The position numbers were made by a program, and so were the translations under genes. A DNA stretch of 64,000 nt from a virus. Taxonomy: Duplodnaviria > Caudoviricetes. The DNA lies in IMG/VR virus record IMGVR_UViG_3300027419_000027, positions 1 to 64,000 of that record; one strand, 5' to 3'. The stretch's first letter is position 1; every line of letters starts with the position of its first letter. Shown piece by piece: positions 24,133 through 39,351 of this stretch. The notes beneath the pieces were generated by a model. The model saw only the letters and a program-made list of their open reading frames with translations, searched no databases and was not told the DNA's origin.

Positions 24133-24170
24133 GCTGGAGGCAGGCACCCCCTGCCTCCAGCGTCCTTTCT
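24133..24170 (+). terminator. 12-bp hairpin after the capsid genes (possible terminator or processing site)
   Basis: GCTGGAGGCAGG-caccc-CCTGCCTCCAGC followed by gtcctttct. Confidence 0.5.
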
Positions 24171-24183: not shown

Positions 24184-25146
24184 ATGGCTGATCCAGCCGC
24201 CCTGACGGTCAGTTACACAAGCCTACTCGAAAGAGTAGGCCGATTTCTATTCGGGCTAAGAACCGGCTATTCCACTGCGGAAACATCGGACATCAATGAC
24301 TGCATTCGCGACGGACTTCGTCGGACCTACGCTGCGAACGACTGGTCATTCTTCAAGCCGATCGAAGACGTTTCCACTACCGCACCCTACGCTACCGGAA
24401 CAATCGAAGTAGTCGATGGCGTGGTGACTCTGACGAGCGGGACGTTTCCAACCTGGGCAGCAGACGGACTGCTGAGTGCGGATAACAGTTACTACTCTGT
24501 CGCCAGCCGAGGTGATGACACGCATATTACCCTGGACGACACCAGCGTAGACATCGACGCTGGAACGACCTACGAACTTGGTCGGCCCGAGATTTCCATG
24601 CCAACAGCGTTCGAGGCGGTCGCTGGCGATAGCGAATTGACATACTATCCCGACCAAAACGAATTGTATCCGGCAGTCCAGCAGAGACACGATCAGCAAA
24701 TCCGCAAGTGGCAGATGAACGATCCGTATTTCGATCGGCCACGCTACTACTCGGTGCGGACTGTCGAATTCGATCCAACCGTTGGAAGCCGAAAGGTTCT
24801 GGCATTCTATCCGACGCCCGACGCAATTTACGTTCTTCGTTGCCCGATGATTCTGCGGCCAGTGTTCATCGACGCAACCAATTTGTATCCGGTCGGAGGC
24901 GAGACTCTTTCTGCGCTCATTCAGGAAGCGTGTCTAGCGGCAGCAGAGCACAATCTTGATGACGGCGACGGCATTCACGAGAAACAGTTCCGCGAACTAC
25001 TGCCGGCGGCAGTTATGGCAGACAGGGACCGCAGTTCTCCTACGACATTAGGCCCCGATGCTCCAGGAAGCGGGCAGCGAACTTCGGACTACTGGCTGCG
25101 AAGCGCGAGAATGGGGGCGGTTAGCCTCGATGGCACAGAGCTTTAG
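24184..25146 (+). CDS. head-tail adaptor/connector-like protein
   Basis: N-terminal INDCIRDGLRR, C-terminal FYPTPDAIY...LIQEACLAAAE pattern. Confidence 0.65.
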   Translation: MADPAALTVSYTSLLERVGRFLFGLRTGYSTAETSDINDCIRDGLRRTYAANDWSFFKPIEDVSTTAPYATGTIEVVDGVVTLTSGTFPTWAADGLLSADNSYYSVASRGDDTHITLDDTSVDIDAGTTYELGRPEISMPTAFEAVAGDSELTYYPDQNELYPAVQQRHDQQIRKWQMNDPYFDRPRYYSVRTVEFDPTVGSRKVLAFYPTPDAIYVLRCPMILRPVFIDATNLYPVGGETLSALIQEACLAAAEHNLDDGDGIHEKQFRELLPAAVMADRDRSSPTTLGPDAPGSGQRTSDYWLRSARMGAVSLDGTEL

Positions 25147-25163
25147 GTGTAAAGGAGATCGTA

Positions 25164-25499
25164 ATGGCTTGGGATAAACTAGACGCCTTCGGCCTGTTTT
25201 CGCTGACGGGCGCTACCGAAATAACGCTGGAACTGCTTCCGATGTATTCGTACAAGTTAACGCATACAGGGAAGGATTCGGCCGGAAATGACGATGCGAG
25301 TTCCGCGATTTCGGCGTGGCTGTCGACGACTAGCGCGACGATTACCGCCGACAACACCGTGGAAGACGACAAGATGTGGATTGCCGACGCCGGCAACGAA
25401 ACCATCGGTCCAGGCATCAGCAAGTTGTACGTCGTGTCGACGGCCGGGGCCGACGCTGCAATTCAGATCGTTCGGCAAAATTCGCACGACATCTGGTAA
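25164..25499 (+). CDS. small structural protein
   Basis: AAGGAG RBS; inside the structural operon. Confidence 0.6.
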   Translation: MAWDKLDAFGLFSLTGATEITLELLPMYSYKLTHTGKDSAGNDDASSAISAWLSTTSATITADNTVEDDKMWIADAGNETIGPGISKLYVVSTAGADAAIQIVRQNSHDIW

Positions 25500-25523
25500 C
25501 AATTTTTCGCGAGGTCCGATACT

Positions 25524-25934
25524 GTGGCTATTCACGCAATGCTGAACGATTTATCGCGGGCGTTTACCGAACCAGGGCCTGGCTACGTCAACGCCACGGC
25601 GACGGACGATGGATCCGGAACCGGGACACTCCGCGAGAATCTGCTGGTCCAGTTCGTCGTTCCCAACTGGGACGGCGACGCCAACCACATCTTGGTTCTG
25701 CCGAGTCCGCTGCCTGGCAAGATCGTTATCATCGCCGGGGCGGCGACAGGTGGAGAATTGCGAACCACTTCGCCGACGACGGTCGGCATCAACGGTGGAA
25801 CGGGAGCGGCCGCAGAGTCCGCCGTGGCGGCTAGCCAGATGGTGGTTGCCATCTGCGAATCCACAACCAGTTGGAAGGCGTTCACCATCGCGTCCGATGG
25901 GACGACGGCTGGGCTGGAAGCGGCGGCAACGTAA
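25524..25934 (+). CDS. small structural protein, paralog 1 (H..L.D..RAF...GPG)
   Basis: N-terminal motif shared with the next two genes. Confidence 0.65.
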   Translation: MAIHAMLNDLSRAFTEPGPGYVNATATDDGSGTGTLRENLLVQFVVPNWDGDANHILVLPSPLPGKIVIIAGAATGGELRTTSPTTVGINGGTGAAAESAVAASQMVVAICESTTSWKAFTIASDGTTAGLEAAAT

Positions 25935-25996
25935 TGTGGTATGTAACCCAACCGGGTCTTGGGACTTCCCCGAACATAACTGAGAAGGAGTAGACA

Positions 25997-26404
25997 ATGG
26001 CTGGAGCACACAGAAGCCTGAACGATATGTTTCGCGCCTTCGGAACAGGTGGGCCTGGAAGGGTTCCAGATCCTGGCAGTGGTGGAACCATCCAATTTGA
26101 GTTGTGGGGCCAGGTCTGCTCCGTGAACACGACCGGGGGAGGGGCTCGCACGTTAGCACAGCCAAACAGGCCGGGGCTTCTCGCAACAGTGGAGCTTGAT
26201 GTCGACGGTGGCGATATGACTCTCACCGTAACCGGCGGGTACAACCAGCCGGGCCATACCACGATCACGATGGACGATGCCGGCGACTTCGCGACGTTCA
26301 TGTCTGTTGAAATCGGCGGCTCGTATTACTGGCGACAAGTCGGCAAGGAAAGAAAACTGGTCGTTACTTCCAGCACGCCATCCAGTTCGCCTTCGGCGTC
26401 GTAA
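25997..26404 (+). CDS. small structural protein, paralog 2, short Ser-rich tail
   Basis: highly similar to 26461..27021; ends SSTPSSSPSAS. Confidence 0.75.
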   Translation: MAGAHRSLNDMFRAFGTGGPGRVPDPGSGGTIQFELWGQVCSVNTTGGGARTLAQPNRPGLLATVELDVDGGDMTLTVTGGYNQPGHTTITMDDAGDFATFMSVEIGGSYYWRQVGKERKLVVTSSTPSSSPSAS

Positions 26405-26460
26405 GAAGCACTTTATCCTTTCGGGCCAAGGGGCCTTTCACTTTTGCAAGGAGCAGATCA

Positions 26461-27021
26461 ATGTCTGCACACAGAACTCTGAAAGACATGTACCGAGCTT
26501 TCGAGGCAACGGGACCGGGCAGACTTGCCGATCCTGGAGATACCGAGACAATCACGGTAACCATGTATGGGCAAATCTGCTCCGTTGTGACGGCAACGAC
26601 AGAAACCCGCACGTTGGCCCAGCCGGACAGGCCGGGAATTATTGCTACCGTCTGCTTGGCTGAAGACGGTGGCGATCTGACTCTCACCGTTACCGGAGGG
26701 TACAACCAGGACGCCGACACGGTGATGACATTTGCCGACGCTGGCGACTTCGTGACGTTCATCTCGATCGAGGTGGGCACCAGCTACTACTGGCGCGTGT
26801 TTGCTCCAGCAGAGGAATTGGTCATTCCGTCGGCTTCGGCGTCGAACACGCCGTCGTCTTCTGTGTCGAACACTCCGTCGACTTCTCCGTCGGCATCTGT
26901 ATCGAACACGCCGTCTGCTTCGGTATCGAACACGGTGTCGCGTACTCCGTCTGCTTCGGTATCGAACACTCCGTCCGCGTCTATATCGAACACCCCGTCT
27001 ACTTCGCCTTCGGCAACGTAA
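26461..27021 (+). CDS. small structural protein, paralog 3, with mucin-like Ser/Thr/Pro tail
   Basis: C-terminal SASVSNTP-type octapeptide repeats; ends SPSAT. Confidence 0.8.
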   Translation: MSAHRTLKDMYRAFEATGPGRLADPGDTETITVTMYGQICSVVTATTETRTLAQPDRPGIIATVCLAEDGGDLTLTVTGGYNQDADTVMTFADAGDFVTFISIEVGTSYYWRVFAPAEELVIPSASASNTPSSSVSNTPSTSPSASVSNTPSASVSNTVSRTPSASVSNTPSASISNTPSTSPSAT

Positions 27022-27032
27022 GGACGTTTGCT

Positions 27033-27752
27033 ATGTCCGACCTGACAGTTCTCTACCTAACAGCGAATAGGATGCCCCAGCGTTGGGTCGACTTCCATCT
27101 GGAACATCTGTTGGCGGCAGTTGGCGACTATCCGCTAATTACTGTCTCGTCGAAGCGAATGGACCTTGGAGTAGGAGAAACCAACATCATTCAGGATATC
27201 CCCTACGGAGGCTGGAGCACGTTCTGCATGTGGAATCGTGCGGCGAAGTTGGCCGACACGCCATTCGTAGCGATAGCCGAGGATGATTCTCTGTATCCAA
27301 GGGAACACTTTGCGACATTCCGTCCGAAAATGGACGAAGTCGCGTACAACATGGCCCGCTGGACGGTGATGAGTTGGCATGACCGTCCTAGCTTCTCGCT
27401 TATCAGGCGCCTGGGCGGATTCACGATGATCTGTCCGCGAAAACTATTGATCGAAGCGTTGGAAGAACGGGAAGCCAAGTATCCAGACGGACATTACCGA
27501 CCTGGAGAAATCGGCAGACCGGACAGCGATAGGCGAATGCGGGTCACTCCCCGCAAACATGTGGAGTGGTGGTCGAAAACGCCTGTCATAAACCTAGCCC
27601 ATACTGTGGGCGTTTCTCCGACGTACATAGGCGTTCGAGGACATCGACGCAAGGAAGGCGAATTGAAGGCGTTTGACGTACCGTACTGGGGGAAAGCCGC
27701 GGACATAGCGGCAGTATTCAACAGCGGATTGGCGGAAGAAGCGAATGTCTGA
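27033..27752 (+). CDS. glycosyltransferase, GT-A fold (GT2-like)
   Basis: N-terminal TVLYLT strand; FVAIAEDD acidic motif. Confidence 0.7.
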   Translation: MSDLTVLYLTANRMPQRWVDFHLEHLLAAVGDYPLITVSSKRMDLGVGETNIIQDIPYGGWSTFCMWNRAAKLADTPFVAIAEDDSLYPREHFATFRPKMDEVAYNMARWTVMSWHDRPSFSLIRRLGGFTMICPRKLLIEALEEREAKYPDGHYRPGEIGRPDSDRRMRVTPRKHVEWWSKTPVINLAHTVGVSPTYIGVRGHRRKEGELKAFDVPYWGKAADIAAVFNSGLAEEANV

Positions 27753-28362
27753 TTTTCTCGCAATCCTAGAGCAGCATTGCCACTACTACGGACAAACCGA
27801 CAGCCTTCCATTTGGGGTGAGGCCACGGCGCCGGAATCAGCACGGACGTACCATTCTGGCGCGTATCTTACGGGACATGGGATTTCGGGAAGGTGTGGAG
27901 GTAGGCACTGAGCGTGGGACGTCCGCCATGCTCTGGTGCGAAACGAATCCACTTCTGCACTTGACATGCGTTGATCCGTACGGGGTCTATCGCGCAAGGC
28001 AGTCGCAGGAAAAACAGGACGCTGTCTATGCTCTCGCCCAGGAAAACCTGAAGCCGTTCAACGCAACGATTCTTCGGGAACCAAGTTTGGAAGCAGTCAC
28101 GCATTTCGCAGACGGATCGTTGGATTTCGTCCACATTGACGGAAATCACGAGTTCGATGCGTGCATGATGGACATCATCCATTGGGTGCCGAAAGTGCGG
28201 GAGGGCGGCCTAATTCTGATCCATGACTATTGCAACTTCTATCGAGGAGGTGTGGTTCAGGCCGTGGATGCGTATGTGAGTGGACACGCCATCCGGTCAT
28301 GGTTCGTGACGCACGATGCGCCGGCAACTGCTTTCTGGCAGAAAGGCGTGGAGTTGATATGA
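27745..28362 (+). CDS. class I SAM-dependent methyltransferase (Methyltransf_24-like)
   Basis: GVEVGTERG, LDFVHIDGNHEF, DIIHWVPKVREGG.ILIHDY. Confidence 0.9.
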   Translation: MSDFLAILEQHCHYYGQTDSLPFGVRPRRRNQHGRTILARILRDMGFREGVEVGTERGTSAMLWCETNPLLHLTCVDPYGVYRARQSQEKQDAVYALAQENLKPFNATILREPSLEAVTHFADGSLDFVHIDGNHEFDACMMDIIHWVPKVREGGLILIHDYCNFYRGGVVQAVDAYVSGHAIRSWFVTHDAPATAFWQKGVELI

Positions 28363-29177
28363 ACGTCTCCATTTGCATGGCGAGCTTCAACAGAGACCCG
28401 AAGGTTCTCGATGCGGTGCTCAATAGCATTTGTTCGCAGACATGCCACTTTCCGGTCGAAGTGGTCGTTGCAGACGACGGAAGCGAGTTTGGGGCACCGG
28501 ACGTGTGCGGGAACTATCCGGTGGAGTATCGAAGGATCGACAGGGAACCGGCCGTGCGAAACCCGAGCGTGGCACGCAACATTGCCTATCGCCAGGCTTC
28601 CGGCGACATCATTATCGCGCAGTCTGACGATGTGGTCCATGAAGACGGAGCCGTCGCTGAGCTGGTCGAACTGTTGGAGAACAATTCCTCTTCATTCGTT
28701 ATCGCCACAGTCCTTGGGTGCGATAGAAACGGTATTCCGGAAGAGGTGTATACGGGCGAATGGAACGGCCAGTTGAGACATCTTCCGCTGTTTTTCCTTG
28801 GTGCGCTATGGAAAAGCGACCTCTACGCCATCGGAGGAAACGATGAGGAGTTTGCCGTTTGCGGAGGAAATGGAGGGCAGGAAGACAAGTGGTTTGCCAG
28901 GTGTTTGATCGATGGACGTGGATTGTCTCCGGTTTACGCGGAGAACGTAGTTGGCTACCACATGGCGCATGACAGGCCGTCGGAGCGATCTGCCAAGCAC
29001 ACCAACATGAAACTGTATCACCAAAAACTAGAACGAGCGATGAACACTGGTGTGTGGTGTTCCTCGAGCGGGCCTTGGAGGGAATACGATGGGGCGACTT
29101 CGGTTGGCGCCGTTTCGCGGCAGTCACTTGCCTTTGCTGATGCAGGCCGTGGCGAAAACCACCGGTCCGATCCTTGA
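28359..29177 (+). CDS. glycosyltransferase family 2
   Basis: VSICMASFNR, VVVADDGS, IIAQSDD, IGGNDEEF...GQED. Confidence 0.85.
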   Translation: MNVSICMASFNRDPKVLDAVLNSICSQTCHFPVEVVVADDGSEFGAPDVCGNYPVEYRRIDREPAVRNPSVARNIAYRQASGDIIIAQSDDVVHEDGAVAELVELLENNSSSFVIATVLGCDRNGIPEEVYTGEWNGQLRHLPLFFLGALWKSDLYAIGGNDEEFAVCGGNGGQEDKWFARCLIDGRGLSPVYAENVVGYHMAHDRPSERSAKHTNMKLYHQKLERAMNTGVWCSSSGPWREYDGATSVGAVSRQSLAFADAGRGENHRSDP

Positions 29178-29604
29178 ATTGGGTTGTGGTTTGTACTCGA
29201 CCACGCCGCTTCACTGGGCCTGCTTCGTCCCCAAGCGGAAGCTGGTGACGTACGAGAACAACGAAGAATACTTCGACTTCCTGAAAGCGTACGCGACCGA
29301 TTTCCACGAGGTTAATTGCGTTTCCGACTGGGATTCGATTGACATTGCCGGTCCCTGGTCGGTGGCGTTTGTCGATCACGAGCCGTGCCATCCAGGCGAA
29401 CGTGACAGGCGCTTTCGTGAAGTCCAGCGACTCGGACACGCGGAATACGTGGTCGTTCACGATACGGAGCGCAGGAACGAGCAGAGACACCGGATAAGCG
29501 AGATGAATGCTCTGTTCAAATACCGGTTCTGGTTCCGCGATGCACGACCAAACACGACGGTTTTCAGCAACGTCCACGATCTGAACGGTTTTTTGGACCC
29601 ATGA
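29089..29604 (+). CDS. methyltransferase-fold protein
   Basis: GSHLPLL...ILELGCGLYST...VAFVDH...VVVHDT. Confidence 0.7.
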   Translation: MGRLRLAPFRGSHLPLLMQAVAKTTGPILELGCGLYSTTPLHWACFVPKRKLVTYENNEEYFDFLKAYATDFHEVNCVSDWDSIDIAGPWSVAFVDHEPCHPGERDRRFREVQRLGHAEYVVVHDTERRNEQRHRISEMNALFKYRFWFRDARPNTTVFSNVHDLNGFLDP

Positions 29605-30350
29605 TTCAAGTCAGCTTGATTATTCCTGTTCTGAACAGCCATGAGATCGTGCGGAGGCAGATTCTGCATTGGGAGCGGATGAATCTTCCAGATGACGTCG
29701 AGATCATCCTCATGGATGACGGCAGCGCTCCTCCGTTGAAGTTTGACACGAACGTATGCAGGATCGTCCCAACCAACGAAACACGCCCGTGGACAAGTTC
29801 TGTTGCCAGAAACAAGGGAGCGAAGATTTCCACTGGCCGGAATCTTCTGATGGTCGACGTGGACTACATCATCCCCAAGAGCGTCATCATGGAGGTGCGA
29901 GAATTCACCGGCCAGAAGATGCAGTTCTCCCGTGAATTCGGCGTACTGGACGAAAACGGCAACTTCACCCAGGACAAGGACACGCTCCTGGCTTACGGGC
30001 TCCTGCCGGATCGCTACGCGAAGCGAGGAACTCGGGTTCCGTTCCACCCGAACACCTTCGCCATGAACCGGGACGTGTTCTTCGAGATCGGAGGATACGA
30101 CGAAGGTCTTGTGTTCCGCAGGCAGTATCCGCAGGGAGAAGACAATCTATTCAAGCGCCGCTGGTGGCAATGGGAAGCAGCCGGGAAGGGCCAGGTACAC
30201 CAGCATCAGCCGAAAATCTACATGTTTCCCTGTGGCCAGTTCTGCGGTGACGTTGACTACAACCCGCATGGACTGTTTCACGACTTGAGCCGCAAGACAA
30301 GAACCAACGTATTCTGGCACCGTCAATTACGCCGCGAGGTACAGAAATGA
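29601..30350 (+). CDS. glycosyltransferase family 2 with GT7C-like C-terminus
   Basis: VSLIIPVLN, IILMDDGS, LLMVDVD, FFEIGGYDE...GED. Confidence 0.85.
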   Translation: MIQVSLIIPVLNSHEIVRRQILHWERMNLPDDVEIILMDDGSAPPLKFDTNVCRIVPTNETRPWTSSVARNKGAKISTGRNLLMVDVDYIIPKSVIMEVREFTGQKMQFSREFGVLDENGNFTQDKDTLLAYGLLPDRYAKRGTRVPFHPNTFAMNRDVFFEIGGYDEGLVFRRQYPQGEDNLFKRRWWQWEAAGKGQVHQHQPKIYMFPCGQFCGDVDYNPHGLFHDLSRKTRTNVFWHRQLRREVQK

Positions 30351-31591
30351 CGATCTGTCTGGTGCGATGTCCGTCTACGTTTCTGATTGATGAGCGTGCA
30401 TTTCCTCCGCTCGGACTGATGGCTGTAGGCGCCGCACTCAAGCGGGACGGTCACGATGTTGTACTCTACGATGGAGAACTCGAGCAACTTCCATTGGACT
30501 ATGAGTATTACGGATTCGGCCCAACGAGCCCCGAGTATCCTTCGGCGGTGGAATGTTTGACCAGGATCAGATATGCGAATCCAAAAGCCCGAGTTGTGAT
30601 TGGAGGCCCTCACGCCACCCTGGTTCCTTTCGATCCATGGGAAAGTGGATTTGACTGCACGGTCGTTGGAGACGGCGAGAACGTCGCGTCTGAGGCGTTC
30701 TTCGGGACAGAAACCATCATCTACGCAGAGAACTTGCCGCTGGACGAGTACCCGATTCCCGACAGAACATTGGTGGACCTGACAAGCTACCACTTTCGTC
30801 TGCATGATAGGCCGGCCACCACGGTCATGGGGTCTCGCGGGTGCCCTTGGAAATGTGCGTTCTGCTGCAAGAACCATACTGGCGTTCGCTTGAACAGCGC
30901 TGAACGGCTGATCGAAGAGATTGGGATGCTGCATGATGACTTCGGCTACAAGGCAATAGCGTTCCCGGAGGACATCTTCACTCTCAACAAGCAGCGAACG
31001 ATTGAGGTGTGCAGGTTTCTCAAGAGAAAAGGTATCATCTGGCGATGCCTGGTGAGGGCCGATCTGGTCATCAAATACGGAGCGGACTTCCTTGACATGA
31101 TGGTTGATTCCGGATGTATCGGGGTTGGAATGGGAATCGAGTCCGGCTCTGACACGATCCTGAAAAACATCCACAAGTCCGAAACGACAGCTCAGATGCG
31201 GGAGGCCATTACGCTGCTGCGAAGCCGTGGAATCTTCATCAAGGCATTCTTCATCGTCGGCCTGCCTGGCGAGAGTGAGGAGACGTTAGCGGAGACAGAG
31301 CAGTTTCTGCAATGGGCGAAGTTTGACGACATTGACGCGAAGATATTTCACCCGTACCCAGGAAGCCCGATCTACGCCAACAAGGACAAGTACGACATCG
31401 AGTGGGATTCTGTTCCGCTGGAATACGCATTCTACAAAGGGCGTCCCGGTGAGTATTACGGCAATATCCGCACGTCGTCGTTGACCAATCAGCAGATCGT
31501 CGACGCGTGGAAGTATTTCGAGGAAACCTACAAGGATTGGACTTTTGCCATCGAAGGAACGATGGTGGCTGGTGATTCCGATGATCAGTGA
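30347..31591 (+). CDS. B12-binding radical SAM protein (class B methyltransferase-like)
   Basis: N-terminal PPLGL...GGPHAT cobalamin-binding domain; SRGCPWKCAFC (CxxxCxxC); GIESGS. Confidence 0.9.
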   Translation: MTICLVRCPSTFLIDERAFPPLGLMAVGAALKRDGHDVVLYDGELEQLPLDYEYYGFGPTSPEYPSAVECLTRIRYANPKARVVIGGPHATLVPFDPWESGFDCTVVGDGENVASEAFFGTETIIYAENLPLDEYPIPDRTLVDLTSYHFRLHDRPATTVMGSRGCPWKCAFCCKNHTGVRLNSAERLIEEIGMLHDDFGYKAIAFPEDIFTLNKQRTIEVCRFLKRKGIIWRCLVRADLVIKYGADFLDMMVDSGCIGVGMGIESGSDTILKNIHKSETTAQMREAITLLRSRGIFIKAFFIVGLPGESEETLAETEQFLQWAKFDDIDAKIFHPYPGSPIYANKDKYDIEWDSVPLEYAFYKGRPGEYYGNIRTSSLTNQQIVDAWKYFEETYKDWTFAIEGTMVAGDSDDQ

Positions 31592-32219
31592 CTACGTTAT
31601 TTCACGCGACCGGTATCTGCTCATGGCCGACCAGCATCGGCCACTGTGGGCGGCGCTGCATAGGTTCGTCTACTCCAACAAGGTGCAGACGTTGATGGAA
31701 GCGGGATGCGGAGTGGCAGAACTGTCCCATGTGGTGGACGAGTACGTCGGAATTGACGTGAATGTCAGCGTCTTGAAGGAGAACGAACACTTCTACAGCA
31801 AGCGATCAGTCTGGATCAACGACGATTGGCGCAACGTAGACGTAAGGTCCAAGCCTGTCGATATGTTCCTGGCGGCCGGCACGATCGAGCGTTGTGATTC
31901 ATGTGAGACGTTCCTGTCGCATGTTCTGGATATTCCCCGATTGAAATATGCTGTTGTGACGTTTCATAAAGGATTACGACACGAGGCATCGCCACGAACA
32001 GGGCGCGAGGGCTGGTTCAATAACTACATAAGCGAGTCGGAAGTCACGCACTGGTTGGAATCGAACGTGCAAACTCACTGGTGGTTGTGCAATCTGCCAC
32101 ATTCACGGTCGCCACGGTGGAGGAGTAAGCAGTGGGATACTGTACTGGTCGTCGATTGGACAAAACAAGCACAATTGGATATGTGGCAACCTAGGGTAGG
32201 GCATAATGTCACGAGCTAA
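31581..32219 (+). CDS. methyltransferase-fold protein
   Basis: LMEAGCG...YVGIDVN motif I/II; start uncertain. Confidence 0.65.
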   Translation: MISDYVISRDRYLLMADQHRPLWAALHRFVYSNKVQTLMEAGCGVAELSHVVDEYVGIDVNVSVLKENEHFYSKRSVWINDDWRNVDVRSKPVDMFLAAGTIERCDSCETFLSHVLDIPRLKYAVVTFHKGLRHEASPRTGREGWFNNYISESEVTHWLESNVQTHWWLCNLPHSRSPRWRSKQWDTVLVVDWTKQAQLDMWQPRVGHNVTS

Positions 32220-33201
32220 GTTACTGAGTGTCGTTGTTCCAGGCAGGAACGAGCAGTTCATGCGGCATACCGTGGACGATGTTCTCGCACACAGTTGCGA
32301 GGATACAGAGGTCATTGCCGTCTGCGATGGAGCGTGGCCGGATCCGCCACTGCAAGATCATCCGCGACTTCAAGTGCTCCACTTTACCGAGCCTGTAGGT
32401 CAGAGAGCAGCGACCAATGCCGGGGCGAGGTTAAGCAGTGCCAAATACATCATGAAGATGGATGCCCACTGTTCCACGGACGAAGGATTCGATGTCAAGC
32501 TGTTCGCGAAGATGCAACCGGATTGGACGATGATTCCGGCAATGCACAGGCTTCACGTATTCGACTGGGGATGCAGCGGTTGCGGCGAGCGGACGTATCA
32601 GGGGTCGAAACCGGCCAAGTGCGAGGAGTGCGGCGGGGAAGAATTCTACATGCACATGGTCTGGCAACCGCGGTTCCAGTACGACCCGACCGTGACGTGG
32701 TTGTTCGACTCCAGTCTCCACTTTCAGTATTTCAGACAGTACAAGAAGCGGGAGGAATTTAAGGCGCAGGAGCCGACTGGCCTGGCAGATACGATGAGTT
32801 GCATCGGATGTTGTTTCATGATGGACCGAGAGCGTTTCTGGAAACTTGGAGGAATGTCGGAAGAGCACGGAAGTTGGGGGCAGATGGGAACGGAAATCTC
32901 AGGGAAGACATGGCTTTCCGGTGGAAAGATGGTCACGTGTCTCGACACCTGGGTAGCTCACCTGTTTAGAACTGGCAACTTCGGACAGAACGGTGAATCG
33001 TCTTGGCCCTATCCAATTTCACAGAGGGACATTGACAAAGCCCGGCGTGTGTCACGCGACATCTGGTTGAAGAACGCCTGGCCGGGGCAGACGCGGCCTC
33101 TGTCGTGGCTCGTCGATAAGTTCTGGCCCGTGCCGGGGTGGTCAGATGCCGACCTCAGGAAGCTGAAGGAGAGCGAACGTGGTTTCGTTGCAGCGGTGTA
33201 G
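32206..33201 (+). CDS. glycosyltransferase with ppGalNAc-transferase (GT27)-like motifs
   Basis: LSVVVPGRNE, DAHC (DxH), FWKLGG..E....WG....EIS..TW.SGG, VAHLFR. Confidence 0.8.
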   Translation: MSRAKLLSVVVPGRNEQFMRHTVDDVLAHSCEDTEVIAVCDGAWPDPPLQDHPRLQVLHFTEPVGQRAATNAGARLSSAKYIMKMDAHCSTDEGFDVKLFAKMQPDWTMIPAMHRLHVFDWGCSGCGERTYQGSKPAKCEECGGEEFYMHMVWQPRFQYDPTVTWLFDSSLHFQYFRQYKKREEFKAQEPTGLADTMSCIGCCFMMDRERFWKLGGMSEEHGSWGQMGTEISGKTWLSGGKMVTCLDTWVAHLFRTGNFGQNGESSWPYPISQRDIDKARRVSRDIWLKNAWPGQTRPLSWLVDKFWPVPGWSDADLRKLKESERGFVAAV

Positions 33202-33805
33202 TCAGTGTGCGTTCGACAGACCACCCCATGCGAAGGCGCTGGGCGAGGGTTTTTCCGGAGATACCAAGCGTTTCCGCCCAGTCGGGAATGCTTTGGGTGA
33301 CGCCGTTAAATGTCAGCAATCGATTGCGACTGGTGTTGCAGGCCTGCTCTCGTCTGGTGGCCCATCGGCAGTTGTTTTTCGAGTAGCCGAGATCGTTCTT
33401 CACTCTCTCAATCGTGTGCTTAGGCGTAGGTCTTTGCCCCATGTCGCGGTAGAACGTCGCAAACGACTCCCACTCCACACATACGTCAATTCCACGTCCT
33501 CCGTAACGAGCGTAGTTCTTGTCGGCTTGACTTCTGCATCGAGAACGCATCCGCTTCCAGACAATGTACTCTGGGCAGTTGCCCTTGCCGTGCGTTTTGT
33601 TCCGGCATCGGACGCAGGAAGTGCTTCGCCCGAGCCGCAGTTCCTTGCCATCGACAACCGCTTTGGTTCCACAGTCGCAGATGCATGTCCAATAGCGGCG
33701 GGAGTTACGAGGAGCCGCTTCCTGAAGGACTGTCCACTGACTGAAGGAAATGCCAGTCAAGTCTGTGCGGCTGGACAATCTCTGGATAGAATCATGAGAA
33801 GCCAT
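33155..33805 (-). CDS. HNH/AP2-associated homing-endonuclease-like protein inserted antisense
   Basis: WTCICDCG..STSCVRC..HG...EY.VW..M..RC...YGGRGIDVC.EW.SF..FY.DMG.RP...TIERV.ND.GY..NNCRWAT; AAGGAG RBS. Confidence 0.85.
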   Translation of the reverse strand: MASHDSIQRLSSRTDLTGISFSQWTVLQEAAPRNSRRYWTCICDCGTKAVVDGKELRLGRSTSCVRCRNKTHGKGNCPEYIVWKRMRSRCRSQADKNYARYGGRGIDVCVEWESFATFYRDMGQRPTPKHTIERVKNDLGYSKNNCRWATRREQACNTSRNRLLTFNGVTQSIPDWAETLGISGKTLAQRLRMGWSVERTLTTPLQRNHVRSPSAS

Positions 33806-33872
33806 TCGAGTCTCCTTCACAGATTCGGATTGGTTAGAGCAGCCAAGGCGTTCCAGCGCCTCGGCTGCTCGC

Positions 33873-33901
33873 ATTATATCACATGTGGGATGGGGGGTCT
33901 A
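33873..33901 (-). promoter_or_regulatory. promoter of the HNH gene, followed by a leader hairpin (33837-33870)
   Basis: minus strand TAGACC-17 nt-TATAAT with extended TG; hairpin GAGCAGCC...GGCTGCTC. Confidence 0.55.
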
Positions 33902-33905
33902 TTCC

Positions 33906-35000
33906 ATGCCGAGTAGCACACCTTACCAAATAGAATTCCCTCGTCTTGGGGTTGTCAGACGATTTGGTCACAGAGCAACTGCGCAGAGTGGCGAGCACGG
34001 AAGCCCTTACTCAATAAACGTCCGTCTTAAAGATTCTCTCACGGGCAGGCTGCGGGGCGGCTCTTTCACAGCTATTGGACTGCCAGTAAAATCCGACCCT
34101 GTTTACCGCGATCGGGCGATTTCATTTTCAGGCAATATCATAACGGCAGCCAGGCAGGGCAATTCGTCAGACACCGCCCTGAGCACGGATATATCCGATA
34201 CACGTCGCCCGATCATCTTTCCGCTTTCCCTGGCCGGCGTCGTGGGTGGGACTGTCGTGGCGGTAGTTCCGCACAAGGATGCGTACCTACTTTGTTTCAC
34301 CGCAACAGAAATCTGGGTTCTGGCTGGCGATCCAACGACGGGCGGGTTGCGTCGTGTTTCGGACCAAGTTGGAATCGTCGGAGTCAATGCGTGGTGCGTT
34401 GCCCACGATACTGTTTACTTCCTATCGCAGTACGGACTGTACGCCGTTGGAGCGGACGGAAGCGGCCTGAAGCCGCTTTCTGAAGACCGAGTGCCTGAAG
34501 AACTCACCGATACGATTGATACCACGGCGATTCTGGACTACTACCATCTCGACCGAGGCGTCTACATTCACCTGACGAAAGCTCCGTCGTGGTTTTATGA
34601 CACCGAGCATGGCGGCTTTTGGCCATTTGGGGGAAGCACACAGCAAAGCCACCTCCTGCTGGGTCCGTTCCACGTCGGGGAAGAGAATTCCTACGGTCGG
34701 ATTCAAAACCTGCAAGGGAACATGGCTGCCGGAAGCGATGATGTCACTTGGCGGATCGTCACCGGGCTCACTGCGGAAGAGGCTGCGGCAAACGGGAAAG
34801 CCGCTATTGCGGCGGCTGTGGCAGGCAACAGCTATTCAAGCTACGTCGCGGCAAGCGGAACCTGGAGTGCGGGCAGGTCGCACATGTCCTATCCCAGAAC
34901 CCGTGCGATCTGGTGCTGTTTCTGGTTATCTGTCGAGTCTGGCGACTGGGCATACGAAGCTATGGCCATGACTCGTATGCCATCTGGTAAGTGGAGATGA
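33906..35000 (+). CDS. tail/nozzle-like beta-rich structural protein
   Basis: VGIVG..AW...D.VYFLS..GLY propeller-like pattern; position after the head genes. Confidence 0.6.
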   Translation: MPSSTPYQIEFPRLGVVRRFGHRATAQSGEHGSPYSINVRLKDSLTGRLRGGSFTAIGLPVKSDPVYRDRAISFSGNIITAARQGNSSDTALSTDISDTRRPIIFPLSLAGVVGGTVVAVVPHKDAYLLCFTATEIWVLAGDPTTGGLRRVSDQVGIVGVNAWCVAHDTVYFLSQYGLYAVGADGSGLKPLSEDRVPEELTDTIDTTAILDYYHLDRGVYIHLTKAPSWFYDTEHGGFWPFGGSTQQSHLLLGPFHVGEENSYGRIQNLQGNMAAGSDDVTWRIVTGLTAEEAAANGKAAIAAAVAGNSYSSYVAASGTWSAGRSHMSYPRTRAIWCCFWLSVESGDWAYEAMAMTRMPSGKWR

Positions 35001-35004
35001 AACG

Positions 35005-37644
35005 ATGAGCGTAACGAAGCCACCGGCAGTAGATCCCGGCCCTCAGACCGAGATTTGGCAGCCGCAGATGATTTCGCCATACAACGCGGGCTGGTGGGCG
35101 ACTCAGACTGTCTCGAATGTCCCAAAAGAGTCCGTTGGGTGGATGCTTGCAACCAGCTGGATAGTTACCGGCATCACTTACGACGAGACGGTAACGCCCA
35201 AAGAACCGTACTACGCGATGACGCGGCAGGGTGTGCAGACATCGAACATCCTCTATTCTCTCCTGGACGCTTACACGACCGAGTACAACAAGGCGTTGGA
35301 CGCAAACGCCACTCGCTACAATGACGTTCTTACCGGATGGGTCAATCTTGTCAACGGTGCCTACGCCCACATGGATAACGAGGTGGCCGAGCAGAATGCC
35401 CATACGGTTCTGTTCCTCGCGTCCATGCACGACTACATGGGCATCGTGGATACGATGATCGACGCGAACCAAAGCACTTTGGTGACGGAAGCTGAAGGTG
35501 CCTCAACAGCCTTGTCGGAACTCAACGTCAAGCTGGACGACTTGGAGGCCAACGTAAACACCAACACGTCCACTATCGAAGGGTTGTTGAGCGATCAGGC
35601 TAATTATCTCAGCGAGTTCCTGATGGATTTCGCTGCGGAACTGGCTGAACTGGATACCAATTACGCCAATCACCTGGCCGACATCGAGCCGCTCCTGACA
35701 AACGCGACATCGCAACTGGCGACGTTTATTTCGGATCAGGCTACGGAACTGGCTGCATTGGAGGACGAACAGACAGATACCAGAGCGACCATCGAAACGC
35801 TACTTACCGGCGAAGCTACGTCGCTCGCTGAACATCTGGCAGACCACGCCGCCAAACTGGAAGAACCGGGTACGCATGGCGACACCACGCGAACGAACGT
35901 AGAGTCGCTGATCGACGACAAAACATCGGCACTGGCAGAATTCCTGACCGATTACGCCGCGGCAATCGCACTTCTGGCGACCGACTTCACAGATCACCAA
36001 GCTGATGCGCTTGGAAAGCAGACAGACGCCCTCGAGGCACTGACCAACCATATCAGCGATTACGAAGACCAGTTGCTGATTCTGGAGGCCAACTATACGT
36101 CGCACGCGAGCGTTCTGGACGATCTGTTGGCGGCCGCGTCAACCAATGTGGGCACGTTCGTCACTGACGTGGGGGATCTACTGGAAATTCTTCTGTCCGA
36201 CTATTCGACAGTGTCCGCAGATATTGACGACGTGCTGACCAGCGCTATGTCTGCGTTTGAAGACCACAATGTCGACTACAGCGCGGTCTTGGAGTTACTG
36301 GAGTCGGACTACAACACGCACTCGCCGATAGCCACGGCGTTTCTGACCGACCTCGGCGTGACCGAATTAGCTCGAATCAACGAGAAGTTTGCGGCATCGC
36401 TATCAACGCAGCTTCAGCAGTTGACCGACCGCGGACTGTATTCGAGTGTCATCGCAACAGACATCACAGCCAGAAACACGCGGGATCTCAACGAAGAAAT
36501 TGTTGCCCTGAACGATCGGTTGAACCGGGAAAAATGGGAAAATCAGCACCGACTGTACGGGCAGCAATTCGAGGTGCGGACTCGAACTCTGGACGGAAAG
36601 GACCGTTTGCACACAGTCCACCAGGAGATACTTCGCTATAAGGCATCCCAGGTGACCGGCGTCTATGGACTGCTGCAAGAGGCGCGTAATCGCACGCTGG
36701 CCGGCAAGCAGGCGATCCTTGGCGCCCAGGACGCCAATTCCCGGCTGGGAATCGAGGTTCAGTCAGGGCTCTATGCCAAGATGCAGGATGTCCGTGTGCG
36801 ACTGCTTGAATCGGCCGACCGCGTCTACCAATTGCGAGACGCTTTGACGAAATGGAGCACTGACGAATTGCATCGCATCTACGGCGAGCAGCTTCAGACT
36901 CGACTGAAGGCTGCCGATGCAGAAGATCGGCAACATGCGGTCGAACAGGAGGTTTCGGCGAGCATTGCAACCTACCGAATGCAGTTGCATGACCAGTTGA
37001 TGAACGAGGTGCGGATCGTTCTGGATGGCCTGGACCGCGAACGGGCGGCGACTTCCGACGTAGCCAAACTCACGATCGGGACGCAGGAGCGACTATTCGC
37101 AGCGGTGCAGTCCGTTCTGGGCCAGCTACTCGACGGGATCGAGAAGAAACACGGTTTGTCAGTGGACGTGTGGCGGGCCGAGGCGACCCAGCGGGACAGG
37201 CTTCTGGAGCAGATCCAGCAGATCGAGATGCAGCAGGCGGCTGGAGTCGAGAAACAGCACGCTGCCCAGCAGGATATTTCGCGGATTGCCATGGGCGAGC
37301 GTGACGCCCTGCTGGGACAGCTTCAGGACGCCGTCAAGGGCGTTCTGGATGGCAAGGCACGTTATTCCGACATGACGGTCCAGCACGCTTCGACGATGGC
37401 AGAACACCGCCACAGGGCGATTGTCGAGAAGATGAACGAAGCCGCCGTAAGGCTTTCCGGGCTGAGCGAAAAGCACGCCGAGGACATGAAGCTCATGGCG
37501 TACCAGTTCGATGCCCGTAATCAGCTCTACCTCGGGTTTTATGCTTACGTCGAGAGGCGAGAAGACGAGTACCCCGCGTTCGAGTCACTGACGCAGTTGG
37601 CGACCGGCTTGGCGGACTCCGGCGGTGGGTGGTTGACACCATGA
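35005..37644 (+). CDS. helical repeat protein (36-aa period), possible ejection or ruler protein
   Basis: two blocks of 36-aa repeats. Confidence 0.7.
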   Translation: MSVTKPPAVDPGPQTEIWQPQMISPYNAGWWATQTVSNVPKESVGWMLATSWIVTGITYDETVTPKEPYYAMTRQGVQTSNILYSLLDAYTTEYNKALDANATRYNDVLTGWVNLVNGAYAHMDNEVAEQNAHTVLFLASMHDYMGIVDTMIDANQSTLVTEAEGASTALSELNVKLDDLEANVNTNTSTIEGLLSDQANYLSEFLMDFAAELAELDTNYANHLADIEPLLTNATSQLATFISDQATELAALEDEQTDTRATIETLLTGEATSLAEHLADHAAKLEEPGTHGDTTRTNVESLIDDKTSALAEFLTDYAAAIALLATDFTDHQADALGKQTDALEALTNHISDYEDQLLILEANYTSHASVLDDLLAAASTNVGTFVTDVGDLLEILLSDYSTVSADIDDVLTSAMSAFEDHNVDYSAVLELLESDYNTHSPIATAFLTDLGVTELARINEKFAASLSTQLQQLTDRGLYSSVIATDITARNTRDLNEEIVALNDRLNREKWENQHRLYGQQFEVRTRTLDGKDRLHTVHQEILRYKASQVTGVYGLLQEARNRTLAGKQAILGAQDANSRLGIEVQSGLYAKMQDVRVRLLESADRVYQLRDALTKWSTDELHRIYGEQLQTRLKAADAEDRQHAVEQEVSASIATYRMQLHDQLMNEVRIVLDGLDRERAATSDVAKLTIGTQERLFAAVQSVLGQLLDGIEKKHGLSVDVWRAEATQRDRLLEQIQQIEMQQAAGVEKQHAAQQDISRIAMGERDALLGQLQDAVKGVLDGKARYSDMTVQHASTMAEHRHRAIVEKMNEAAVRLSGLSEKHAEDMKLMAYQFDARNQLYLGFYAYVERREDEYPAFESLTQLATGLADSGGGWLTP

Positions 37645-37693
37645 TATAGGTATAACCCGTAACGATTACTAGCGTTTTCAAGGAGTATAACAG

Positions 37694-38215
37694 ATGTCGT
37701 TCGACAAGACGCCCACGAATTGGTTTGAGAGTTGGTCTGAAGACGGAACGTACATTACCGTTCCACTTGCAACCTTTCCAGAGATGTCTGCCGCGGACGC
37801 AGACGCAGCGACTGGCGATATTCGCAAGATCATGTTTGCGATTCTGGAGAAGTTCTACAGCGTTTACTTGGCGACGGCGACCGCTGATCGACCAGTCAAG
37901 CTGACGGTCACAAAGACCGCGACCGCAGACATGGTGCGTAGCGTGATCAAAAGCCGTTACGTATTCACCTGCGAGACGGATATTAGCGCACAGGAGGTTC
38001 GGGAAGAGTCATCGAGCAGTCCGTCCTCTTCGGTTTCGAATACCCCGTCTGCCACGCCATCCGCTACGGTTTCGAGTACACCGTCTGCTACGGTTTCGAG
38101 TACACCGTCTGCTACGCCTTCCGCGTCGGTGTCGAACACGCCGTCGAGCACGCCGTCCTCGTCTGTTTCGAATACGCCTTCTGCAACGCCATCGAGTTCG
38201 CCGTCAGCCACATGA
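37694..38215 (+). CDS. structural protein with a long mucin-like Ser/Thr/Pro tail
   Basis: C-terminal S(N/S)TPSA(T/S)(V/P) repeats; ends SPSAT. Confidence 0.8.
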   Translation: MSFDKTPTNWFESWSEDGTYITVPLATFPEMSAADADAATGDIRKIMFAILEKFYSVYLATATADRPVKLTVTKTATADMVRSVIKSRYVFTCETDISAQEVREESSSSPSSSVSNTPSATPSATVSSTPSATVSSTPSATPSASVSNTPSSTPSSSVSNTPSATPSSSPSAT

Positions 38216-39351
38216 CATTCCGCAAACGTCGCAACCCAACGCCCGGATTCAAACTCCCTCCACCGTATGAACCGCTGGAGGGAATCAGAGCACCGCTCAA
38301 GACAGAGGGTGTGTTTCCATACTGCGCCATGTACCAAGTGGCGGAAGAGGACACAGAAGACGACTACGTCCTCTGTCGCGGGTTCGACGTGCGCGTCAAC
38401 AAGTTCATCGACTACGAGAAGGACAACCCGAACAAGCCCGGAATTCCCGTAGCGAAACCTTACGGACAGCGTGGCTCGGGGTGTTACTCGGTGGGGCAGA
38501 TATTCGCGGCAATGTTGCCGCTCCAGACGCCCAACGCGAGTCCAACTGCCGTAGAGTGGCGGGTCGGGCAGAATCCTGGTGTAGCCGAAACGTCGACCGG
38601 GCATCCGACCGACCTGGAAGAAAAGGTTGACGAGCTGCACACGGAGGAAAACAAGGCCATCAACTGGATGTTCATCCAGTCGCCTGGGATGCAGGTCATT
38701 GAAATTACGCACATCACACACACGAGCCCTTCCTTCGACATGAAGAATTACGGTGTGTGTTTGGGCAAGTACGTCTCATTCGATACGGAATTGGAATGGA
38801 ATGAGACGTATAAGAAGGGATCGGGAGAAATACTGAGCTACGTTCCTGACGACGATCTCGTCGAGGATGTCGAGAAGCGATACATCTTCATCGGTTTCGT
38901 TGACCAGAGCAAGGCTGGTGTTCCCGGCCAACGGTACTTCGCCATGCCGTACGGGACCAAGACGTGCGGAGAATTAACACGCCCGTTGGTCATGGTCGAA
39001 GGAGGGACGCCTGTGGCGTGCGTCCTGGCAGAGGACCATCCTGGCTGCGGCGTGGTGTTCGATGTCTGGATTGCCCCGCGATGGGACATCGAAATGGACA
39101 GCAGTAACGGCGACTGGGATCTGAGTCATTCCACTGCAATTTGGGACATCAAGGGTTGTGACGACGAAACCTACGGCGTGGTGAAGTTCAAGGCGATCGA
39201 CAAGCGAAAGGGAGTTCCGGAGCCTTTGAAGTACGCGACTGGTCTGTTTGCTCCGAGAGTGAGCAAGGCGTACGGAATTATCCTGGAAGTCATCGAACTC
39301 GACTGCGAGTCTCCAGGCGGCTGCTACTTCTGCGAGGAGCCAGTGGCATGA
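38212..39351 (+). CDS. tail-region protein
   Basis: ATGA overlap; GIPVAKPY motif. Confidence 0.65.
   Translation: MTFRKRRNPTPGFKLPPPYEPLEGIRAPLKTEGVFPYCAMYQVAEEDTEDDYVLCRGFDVRVNKFIDYEKDNPNKPGIPVAKPYGQRGSGCYSVGQIFAAMLPLQTPNASPTAVEWRVGQNPGVAETSTGHPTDLEEKVDELHTEENKAINWMFIQSPGMQVIEITHITHTSPSFDMKNYGVCLGKYVSFDTELEWNETYKKGSGEILSYVPDDDLVEDVEKRYIFIGFVDQSKAGVPGQRYFAMPYGTKTCGELTRPLVMVEGGTPVACVLAEDHPGCGVVFDVWIAPRWDIEMDSSNGDWDLSHSTAIWDIKGCDDETYGVVKFKAIDKRKGVPEPLKYATGLFAPRVSKAYGIILEVIELDCESPGGCYFCEEPVA

Follow-up and report, generated by a model that had tools for sequence, protein, structure and literature searches.

A complete 80-kb genome of an uncultured phage carries, amid its particle genes, a block of eight enzyme genes that probably encodes a cytoplasmic protein O-glycosylation system, the substrates of which would be the Ser/Thr/Pro tails carried by three displayed proteins of the same phage, P1, P2 and T. 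The window analysed here is a stretch of 64,000 nucleotides of this genome. Since the last enzyme of the block, GTd, has its closest relatives among the animal enzymes that initiate mucin glycosylation, and since the cassette adjoins the tailed proteins, the appendages of the phage probably receive a sugar coat from its own enzymes. The gene content, the fold kinship of GTd and the comparative linkage of cassette and Ser/Thr/Pro tracts are established. To our knowledge, the only phages shown to glycosylate their own particles are a few mycobacteriophages.

The gene block and its enzymes

The block spans positions 27033-33201 on the plus strand and starts 12 nt past the end of P2 (Table 1). Its reading frames are tightly packed, with neighbours overlapping by 4-14 nt except for GTb and MTb, which overlap by 89 nt. 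The first-pass annotation of this DNA had placed the block inside the structural operon, and it does lie amid particle genes, but the operon is interrupted after GTd by a minus-strand HNH-like gene (33155-33874). The latter has no Pfam match and shows tblastx matches at the same position in the relatives L014/L056 and in L104; a promoter-like site lies beside it at 33901-33873. The virion structural gene that follows is found directly 3' of GTd in most relatives, the structural calls for neighbouring genes being based on weak matches and gene order.

Table 1. Genes of the putative glycosylation system and its surroundings (window positions).
Gene	Position	Strand	Assignment	Basis
P0	25524..25934	+	First of three tandem paralogues, ~115-aa domain, untailed	N-terminal motif common to P1 and P2
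P1	25997..26404	+	Paralogue with short tail SSTPSSSPSAS	Translation
P2	26461..27021	+	Paralogue with 66-aa octapeptide Ser/Thr/Pro tail, putative acceptor	Repeats, tail composition
GTa	27033..27752	+	Probable GT-A-like transferase (putative)	AEDD motif, weak hhalign match, cassette membership
MTa	27745..28362	+	TylF-like class I SAM methyltransferase	Pfam Methyltransf_24, E 1e-19
GTb	28359..29177	+	GT2 glycosyltransferase	Pfam PF00535 (Glycos_transf_2), E 2e-18
MTb	29089..29604	+	Putative class I methyltransferase	ELGCG motif only
GTc	29601..30350	+	GT2 glycosyltransferase	Pfam PF00535, PF10111
B12-radical SAM enzyme	30347..31591	+	Class B (B12-binding) radical SAM enzyme, 414 aa	Pfam B12-binding and Radical_SAM
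MTc	31581..32219	+	Putative class I methyltransferase	EAGCGVAEL motif only
GTd	32206..33201	+	GT27-like GT-A transferase, proposed peptide-initiating	Profile, fold, motifs
HNH-like gene	33155..33874	-	Homing-endonuclease type, outside the system	Translation motifs
Structural gene	33885..35000	+	Virion structural gene	Weak PHROG matches (virion structural and head-closure proteins), synteny
T	37694..38215	+	103-aa domain with 70-aa Ser/Thr/Pro tail, second putative acceptor	Repeats, tail composition

Four GT-A glycosyltransferases and four methylating enzymes had been counted in the block, a count confirmed as three and two, respectively, because GTa, MTb and MTc match no family or sequence in Pfam, NCBIfam or PDB and are supported by motifs. 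In GTa the AEDD motif is conserved, a weak in-register hhalign match links the protein to GTd (E 0.077), and its Atlas neighbours are viral clusters, one of which is auto-named glycosyltransferase. GTa and GTc are core members of the cassette in relatives, in which GTb is rare; the NCBIfam match of GTb is EpsD-like and under the cut-off. In MTb, residues E30-G32-G34 and D96 are invariant in 12 homologues and the gene recurs in cassettes of other loci, while homologues of MTc were found in none of the loci compared. The B12-radical SAM enzyme matches the NCBIfam PhpK family (138 bits, under the cut-off) and, in the PDB, AprD4 (6fd2, E 8e-27), and is predicted to be a sugar C-methylase or an AprD4-like sugar-modifying enzyme.

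None of the eight enzymes has a membrane segment, and all are predicted to be soluble. Pfam and NCBIfam searches with the eight proteins returned GT2, methyltransferase and radical-SAM families only, with no flippase, polymerase, oligosaccharyltransferase or lipid-carrier gene among them.

GTd and the GT27 family

GTd is a protein of 331 aa that stops after the catalytic domain, with no match to a lectin family in Pfam and no hydrophobic segment as a membrane anchor (maximum KD19 0.71). In Pfam it belongs to Glycos_transf_2, and Glyco_transf_7C falls just under its cut-off (22.8 against 23 bits). When the GTd profile was compared with the PDB, the best 15 matches were all ppGalNAc-Ts (E 1e-14 to 2e-8), with the best other GT-A enzyme at E 1e-6. 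Its AF2 model (pLDDT 92.7) gave the same picture: the best ~50 Foldseek matches are all GT27 enzymes, and the VIA Z values against GT27 are 26.1 (rmsd 2.5 A over 267 residues) and 23.9, compared to at most 17.4 for other GT-A enzymes. Identity to GT27 enzymes is 17-23%; the N-terminal half also weakly matches streptococcal GalT1 (5hea). By profile, Foldseek and fold Z, GTd thus groups with GT27 protein O-glycosyltransferases and not with DNA-modifying or LPS/EPS enzymes.

The motifs originally read from the letters, MDAHC, FWKLGG...WGQMGTEISGKTWLSGG and VAHLFR, are all present in GTd, and none of their key residues varies among 46 homologues. These residues include D86-x-H88 (here D86-A-H88) and H252-x-F-R255 (H252-L-F-R255), which line up with LDAHC and vgHvfr of GalNAc-T1. 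The proposed match to GT27 motifs holds for DxH and the distal His, the Mn2+ ligands of that family, and for part of the Gal/GalNAc-T motif, WGGENxE(L/I)S..W..GG, of which W224-G225, E230-I-S232, W236 and G239-G240 are retained, but not for GGEN, replaced by GQMG. In GT27 the GGEN residues contact GalNAc; therefore, the donor sugar of GTd, and perhaps its acceptor too, may differ from those of GT27. A further feature is an insert at residues 121-146 forming an invariant four-Cys Zn-ribbon.

The tailed proteins and their linkage to the cassette

Both tailed genes announced by the first-pass annotation, one directly before the block and one at 37694, were recovered: P2 and T, respectively. In P2, 35 of the 66 tail residues are Ser or Thr, encoded by 24-nt tandem repeats at 26826-27015; in T they are 42 of 70, with 24-nt tandem repeats at 38024-38190. 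The last five residues of P1, P2 and T read SPSAS or SPSAT (SPSAT in P2 and T), and among the real genes of the 80-kb genome only these three contain Ser/Thr/Pro tracts. P and T match no family. The P domain of relatives occurs in fusion with LamG or GDSL-esterase modules, and fibre-type modules (Gly_rich_2, GDSL/CE2) are present on proteins with tracts elsewhere. P0 has homologues of 56-88% identity in L046, L048, L077, L104, L114 and L120.

In syntenic relatives the cassette always lies within the virion module, adjoining a tailed P-family protein, and tailed P2 orthologues occur in cluster-bearing relatives only. Tailed T homologues are present in L002, L008 and L014, and the position of T in the cluster-less L068 and L118 is taken by untailed proteins. 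Relatives with the cluster and no tails had been named beforehand as counter-evidence. The P proteins of the cluster-less relatives (L046, L066/L068, L104, L118) are all untailed, in line with the proposal, but one close relative, L005/L049, has the cluster and no tract in the covered DNA. On the g24184 tree the cluster state changes at least three times, and the tails follow it in two to three of three independent contrasts and never in the opposite direction, a comparison that is underpowered (p 0.25 or more). A tract of at least 40 aa was found in only 2 of 74 GT-less family loci (755 kb).

The co-occurrence of GTd-like genes and tracts, suggested earlier as a check, is seen in unrelated phages as well: a Ser/Pro tract protein lies within 10 kb in 18 of the 19 GTd loci that have 5 kb on both sides on unrelated viral contigs, the structural genes of which are different. 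Every set of loci anchored on GTd carries a bias from that choice. On MAG contigs, such a tract is near GTd in 19/34 loci and absent nearby in 15/34; the tract proteins usually have 500-2372 aa and start within 3 kb downstream of GTd. On Patescibacteria chromosomes, GTd cassettes are located beside, and in front of, giant Ser-tract proteins of 500-2372 aa, which are followed by tatC. The converse relation is weak. GTd lies within 10 kb in only ~7 of 27 viral loci found by the tail peptide, and none of nine such records searched whole has GTd. Two of the nine are 95-99% complete, and one of these two lacks GT2 altogether. Tracts do not need a GTd cassette, because many tract-bearing phages lack it.

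These last records, together with the GTd loci devoid of tracts, are what one would expect if the cassette glycosylated something else, for instance different proteins of the virion, a polymer of the host envelope or a soluble oligosaccharide, and the tails were unmodified flexible bristles or linkers in the same variable region. GT2 enzymes commonly make polysaccharides, in keeping with the weak EpsD-like and PgaC-like NCBIfam matches of the cassette GT2 enzymes, and the capsid C-terminus of Che8 is an example of another virion acceptor. We consider this explanation unlikely, since the nearest relatives of GTd by sequence and fold act on peptides, the enzymes are all soluble with no lipid-carrier, flippase or polymerase genes in the cluster searches, and within a single phage family cluster and tails vary together, a pairing that recurs in unrelated phages.

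Still less probable is a host-conversion or superinfection-exclusion module altering LPS, capsule or S-layer glycans of the host. Phage GT2 enzymes often serve serotype conversion (PMC12619734), and CPR homologues adjoin sugar-nucleotide genes in chromosomal glycan loci. The cluster, however, sits within the late virion operon with gene overlaps of 4-14 nt and, in relatives, goes together with virion-module proteins that bear tracts, and its eight proteins show no family match or membrane segment pointing to membrane-bound GtrA/GtrB/GtrC or a lipid-carrier pathway. Glycosylation or methylation of the phage DNA against restriction is very improbable: DNA is the target of many phage GTs (Pyle et al., 2024, as cited in PMC12619734) and methyltransferases are present, but the complete genome contains no thymidylate-synthase-like hydroxymethylase for DNA hypermodification, GTd resembles peptide O-GTs, MTa belongs to the TylF type of sugar O-methyltransferases and the cluster lies amid structural, not replication, genes.

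Proposed mechanism

The proposal of a methylated O-glycan coat on the phage's own mucin-like tails draws its support from the kinship of GTd, the linkage to the tails and the solubility of the enzymes. During late expression, the lectin-less GTd, through its DxH and distal His metal site, would move a first sugar from a host nucleotide-sugar onto Ser/Thr hydroxyls in the disordered tails. Chain extension would fall to GTb, GTc and probably GTa, MTa and possibly MTb and MTc would O-methylate the sugars, and the B12-radical SAM enzyme would C-methylate or otherwise tailor one of them. For GalNAc as the sugar, and for one initiator with three extenders, we infer rather than observe. Short appendages, held in place by the ~115-aa P domain and the T domain, would in this way acquire a mucin-like glycan brush, with possible roles in protease protection, hydration, adhesion or masking.

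Comparison with known systems

In the chlorovirus PBCV-1, virus-encoded cytoplasmic GTs and methyltransferases make methylated glycans on a virion protein. These glycans are N-linked, on the major capsid protein of a eukaryotic virus, and their acceptor sites are unrelated to those described here. Among phages, virion glycosylation is already known from mycobacteriophages, and the enzymes and acceptors here are different. Che8, Corndog and Myrna use their own GTs to attach glycans to capsid and tail-tube proteins at the C-termini (PMC12619734; PMC12363180; both citing Freeman et al., 2023, Cell Host Microbe 31:1216). The likeness would lie in phage GTs that modify virion proteins of the same phage in their C-terminal parts. 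Che8 gp108 combines GT2 with a C-terminal half of the Methyltransf_24 type, the Pfam family of MTa, but pairwise similarity between Che8 and window enzymes of these common families is insignificant. The essential Che8 gp110 is GT25-like, matching Pfam Glyco_transf_25 as none of the eight window enzymes does, and is unrelated to GTd (hhalign probability 0.2%). The acceptors here would be tandem octapeptide tails on small accessory proteins rather than capsid and tail-tube C-termini, and the GT genes lie inside the virion operon, whereas in Che8 they are at the right genome end.

The closest fold and sequence relatives of GTd are eukaryotic mucin-type GT27 enzymes (mouse GalNAc-T1, 8v9q/1xhb; human T2, 2ffu), which have in common with it the GT-A fold, the metal site and part of the Gal/GalNAc-T motif, as well as acceptors, putative here, made of Ser/Thr/Pro-rich tandem repeats. 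Unlike them, GTd lacks a ricin-type lectin domain and a membrane anchor, has GQMG for GGEN and a Zn-ribbon insert, and would act in the bacterial cytoplasm.

In Gram-positive bacteria, serine-rich repeat glycoproteins are modified by dedicated soluble cytoplasmic GTs encoded beside the substrate gene, with GtfA/GtfB and the accessory Sec system (PMC6973325; PMC7948813). Long Ser-X tracts O-glycosylated by dedicated soluble GTs would be common to both systems; however, neither a GtfA/GtfB-type initiating pair nor accessory SecA2/SecY2 was matched among the eight cluster proteins (Pfam, NCBIfam), and the substrate would be a phage particle protein instead of a cell-wall adhesin. Staphylococcal SdgA/SdgB, dedicated GTs that decorate the Ser-Asp repeat stalk of surface adhesins (PMC3794999), act on an SD repeat in another organism and setting, and the analogy is of function only.

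Distribution and implications

GTd has 4379 homologues, the best 120 of which are 64-78% identical to it, and tblastn found no match in 50,697 deposited phage genomes. GTd-type enzymes could be true prokaryotic and viral counterparts of GT27 that start cytoplasmic O-glycans on Ser/Thr tracts, at the core of a widespread undescribed system common to many uncultivated phage lineages and Patescibacteria chromosomes, with which phages would build mucin-like brushes on fibres and appendages; we see the case for this broader proposal as evenly balanced. If the cassette works as proposed, mucin-like O-glycan brushes would be common among abundant uncultivated phages (>4000 GTd homologues) and built by relatives of the enzymes that start animal mucin glycosylation, with a bearing on how environmental phages stick to, or avoid, surfaces and hosts, on the evolutionary history of GT27 and on the surface biology of Patescibacteria. 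Glyco-engineering would also gain tools in the form of peptide O-glycosyltransferases that are small, soluble and free of a lectin domain, and the contrast within one phage family, between members having cluster and tails and members having neither, is a direct experimental handle. Many of the GTd homologues are located on phage contigs of 50-80 kb.

Virion module and Ser/Thr/Pro-tailed proteins

The enzyme block, a cassette of eight genes (GTa, MTa, GTb, MTb, GTc, rSAM, MTc and GTd), probably glycosylates the phage's own Ser/Thr/Pro-tailed particle proteins. The first-pass annotation had read it as a phage-encoded O-glycosylation system for the virion; the underlying observation was confirmed, with the eight enzyme ORFs and two repeat tails located where that annotation had placed them, and the interpretation is supported by the kinship of GTd, the proposed peptide-initiating transferase, by the linkage between cassette and tails and by the solubility of the enzymes.

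The IMG/VR record behind the window is 80,038 bp long, with completeness rated at 100%, and the window corresponds to its first 64 kb. Structural genes were assigned from PHROG and Pfam matches at E values of 4e-4 to 3e-3 together with gene order. The protein in the major-capsid position is 82-95% identical over 80 IMG/VR contigs, and its gene is followed on the + strand by those for several small proteins, by the enzyme block and by large tail-type genes, with a 3049-aa protein last. From this arrangement, the enzyme block is likely to sit in a structural operon. In PHROGs and Pfam, no match was found for P0, P1, P2, T, the putative capsid protein and most tail genes.

Features of the window, the whole record and related loci
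Feature	Position	Strand	Basis or detail
ACGACC hexamers in tandem	window 1-62; genome 79783-80028		both record ends
Terminase-like gene	15862-17793	+	weak PHROG/Pfam matches, gene order
Portal-like gene	18624-20414	+	weak PHROG/Pfam matches, gene order
Acidic scaffold-like protein gene	after portal-like gene	+	weak matches, gene order
372-aa protein gene, major-capsid position	after scaffold-like gene	+	gene order
Hairpin	24132-24162		13 nt past stop of gene 23226-24119
P0	25524-25934		tandem paralogue
P1	25997-26404		tandem paralogue
P2	26461-27021		tandem paralogue
Enzyme block	27033-33201	+	eight genes
GTb/MTb overlap	29089-29177		89 nt, different frames
GTd	32206-33201	+	last gene of block
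Four-Cys insert of GTd	32566-32643		residues 121-146
HNH/homing-endonuclease-like gene	33155-33874	-	239 aa
Promoter-like site of HNH-like gene	33901-33873		TAGACC-17-TATAAT with TG
T	37694-38215		tailed protein
P-domain fusions in relatives	L065:7478-9718; L118:4597-5592; L005:6155-7027; L046:6248-7273
HNH-like homologues in relatives	L014:11503-12177; L104:10760-11443
Poly-Ser protein of L118	10873-11394		position of window gene 39348-40445

Upstream of the block, P0 has no tail, P1 has about 12 tail residues and P2 has 66. T consists of a 103-aa domain, unrelated to the P domain, followed by a 70-aa tail. P1, P2 and T share the tail ending SPSAS or SPSAT, and no such tract was found in the other real genes of the genome. 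Judging from their position, from the fusions of the P domain to LamG and GDSL-esterase domains in relatives and from an Atlas link to a depolymerase beta-sandwich cluster, which is a lead only, P and T are probably displayed on the particle surface. The P domain (about 115 aa) looks like a modular anchor, with GDSL esterase, LamG lectin-like or unknown C-terminal domains replacing the tail in relatives.

Composition of the enzyme block

The first-pass annotation had counted four GT-A glycosyltransferases and four methylating enzymes. This stands in Pfam for GTb, GTc and GTd (all GT2-type), for MTa (Methyltransf_24/TylF) and for a B12-binding radical SAM enzyme; GTa, MTb and MTc found no support in Pfam or NCBIfam and no significant match in PDB profile searches. 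The radical SAM enzyme is nearest to PhpK-type methylases in NCBIfam and, in the PDB, to AprD4, which acts on a sugar, both far under the family cut-offs. By hhalign, GTa is weakly related to GTd (E 0.077), and MTb matches neither MTa nor MTc. The conserved motifs, AEDD in GTa and E-x-G-x-G in the methyltransferase candidates, together with the recurrence of these genes in cassettes, make the enzyme identities of GTa, MTb and MTc probable. No homologue of MTc occurs in any of the related loci compared. GTb, which is rare among relatives, overlaps MTb if the homologue-supported MTb start at 29089 is correct, and it may carry a spurious C-terminal extension.

Kinship of GTd to the GT27 family

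The reading of GTd as a GT27-type enzyme (CAZy polypeptide GalNAc-transferases) in the first-pass annotation was supported by profile, Foldseek and fold-Z comparisons, all of which rank GT27 first. In phmmer, ppGalNAc-T10, T9, T1 and T2 stand at the top. When a 46-sequence profile is searched against the PDB, GT27 enzymes take the first 15 places (E 1e-14 to 2e-8), with alignment over each half of the catalytic domain, and non-GT27 GT-A enzymes begin at 1e-6. The AF2 model built from the same 46-sequence alignment reaches a pLDDT of 92.7 (37.8 for the single-sequence model), and its approximately 50 best Foldseek chains are all GT27. In an all-against-representatives fold search, GalNAc-T1 is found at Z 26.1 (rmsd 2.5 A over 267 residues) and Toxoplasma GalNAc-T3 at Z 23.9, whereas the next GT-A enzyme scores 17.4. 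Moreover, the Mn-ligand motifs are invariant in the 46-homologue alignment.

Unlike GT27 enzymes, GTd has neither a lectin domain nor a membrane anchor, its GGEN motif reads GQMG, and it holds an invariant CxxC...CxxC insert. Judged from sequence and predicted fold, GTd is the nearest kin of GT27 and is predicted to work alike; since it fails two GT27 features, it is kept outside the family. The four-Cys insert, which is not present in GT27 structures, lies inside the GT-A fold and is rubredoxin/Zn-ribbon-like, with C123, C126 and C142 invariant and C139 nearly so. A tblastn search of GTd against 50,697 deposited phage genomes gave no match.

Linkage between cassette and tails

A total of 4379 GTd homologues was collected, the best 120 of which are 64-78% identical to GTd, many on contigs of 50-81 kb. 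The cassette occupies the same virion module, adjoining a tailed protein, in 14 syntenic IMG/VR loci; its core is formed by GTa, MTa, GTc and GTd, and rSAM, MTb and GTb are optional. Relatives without the cassette (L046, L066/L068, L104 and L118) were found by anchoring on the capsid-position protein, and their P-family proteins are untailed or carry a LamG domain instead. The g24184 tree splits these phages among three supported clades, and independent contrasts show tails tracking the cluster in two to three of three and opposed in none, too few pairs for significance. Tracts of at least 40 aa occur in two of 74 family loci lacking the transferases (755 kb), one consisting of poly-Ser within a Cys-rich protein and one at the end of a contig. 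In the cluster-less L118, the Cys-rich protein at the position of window gene 39348-40445 holds a stretch of about 100 residues that is almost pure poly-Ser and differs in kind from the SPS-type tails.

The co-occurrence that the first-pass annotation had proposed to check in related phages extends to unrelated ones. In distant viral contigs whose structural genes are unrecognisable, a Ser-x-Ser-Pro tract protein of up to 2562 aa is present in 18 of 19 GTd loci flanked by at least 5 kb on both sides, some with fibre-type domains (Gly_rich_2, GDSL/CE2). As for the cluster occurring without tails, which that annotation had named as evidence against its reading, one close relative (L005/L049) carries the cassette, and its covered DNA holds no tract. 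In a second lineage (L004, L006, L007, L008 and L013), the capsid-position protein is only 23-25% identical to that of the window, yet its members share the cassette, with GTd at 67-73% identity, and have similar tail genes at 50-70%. This combination points to mosaic exchange involving the glycosylation and tail module.

In the reverse direction, a search with the tail peptide retrieved 27 viral loci, with GTd nearby in only about seven. Nine tail-peptide records, two of them near-complete, were searched whole and contained no GTd. An obligatory link between tract and GTd thus gained no support from this reverse-association test, and the two sets of counts show GTd to be a far better predictor of tracts than tracts are of GTd. 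Long Ser/Pro tract proteins without GTd are encoded in L220 (178 kb, 99% complete, other GT2 genes present), in L226 (28 kb, 95% complete, no GT2) and in other low-GC loci within L206-L230. This cassette therefore does not serve every tract; some may depend on other or host-encoded enzymes, or remain unmodified.

Proposed mechanism and known systems

The proposed route would be sequential glycosylation of a soluble protein in the cytoplasm, prior to assembly. No membrane segment is predicted in any of the eight enzymes, and family searches with them hit GT2, methyltransferase and radical-SAM families and nothing else, no lipid-carrier, flippase, polymerase or oligosaccharyltransferase being among the matches; this combination fits cytoplasmic glycosylation of the kind known for serine-rich repeat glycoproteins. 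No GT2 gene was found elsewhere in the 80-kb genome. Host conversion of the Gtr/LPS type is unlikely, given the lack of membrane components in the cluster. DNA modification, the reading that the first-pass annotation had set against its own, is very unlikely as the main function, the genome having no thymidylate-synthase-like gene for hypermodification.

Mycobacteriophages Che8, Corndog and Myrna are described as glycosylating the C-termini of capsid and tail-tube proteins with their own glycosyltransferases (PMC12619734; PMC12363180). Che8 encodes a GT2 fused to Methyltransf_24/TylF (gp108), a GT2-like protein (gp109) and a GT25-like one (gp110). Such systems share with this cassette the idea of virion self-glycosylation and the GT2/TylF families; by contrast, the core enzyme here is the unrelated, GT27-like GTd and the putative acceptors are tandem repeats. 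The literature searched contained no account, for phages or Patescibacteria, of a GT27-like enzyme occurring together with Ser tracts.

Cellular relatives

Homologues 43-57% identical to GTd occur commonly among MAGs, chiefly of Patescibacteria and including chromosomes of about 0.9 Mb; they lie in cassettes alongside GTa-, MTa- and MTb-like genes. The cassette is therefore not phage-specific. Three MAG loci were inspected and held no phage genes; some MAG contigs (e.g., L123 and L125) clearly belong to phages of the window's family. A Ser/Pro tract protein, usually of 500-2372 aa and starting less than 3 kb downstream of GTd, is present in 19 of 34 well-flanked MAG loci. In eight loci on Patescibacteria MAG contigs (L151, L155, L159, L170, L172, L178, L183 and L202), tatC follows the giant Ser-tract protein at a distance of 550-880 nt. 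It might provide a dedicated way of exporting a protein glycosylated in the cytoplasm, or the arrangement may only reflect synteny conserved within the lineage, the TatC proteins being 49-75% identical. The tract proteins of these loci share the C-terminal motif GFNxxTxxLExWxGxxWLxLPMKKI and have no obvious signal peptide. Upstream in L178 are CapD-like, UDP-GlcNAc 2-epimerase and carbamoyltransferase genes.

Other features of the genome

An Rfam search of window positions 25000-39000 gave no RNA family match. With its strong, GC-rich stem of 13 bp and a T-rich tail behind it, the hairpin could attenuate transcription past the head genes. The 683-nt 'gap' separating GTd from the next structural gene is occupied by the HNH-like gene, homologues of which lie at the equivalent spot after GTd in L014/L056, with one also in L104; in most relatives the structural gene abuts GTd directly. 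The ACGACC arrays at the record ends may be terminal repeats or assembly wrap-around.
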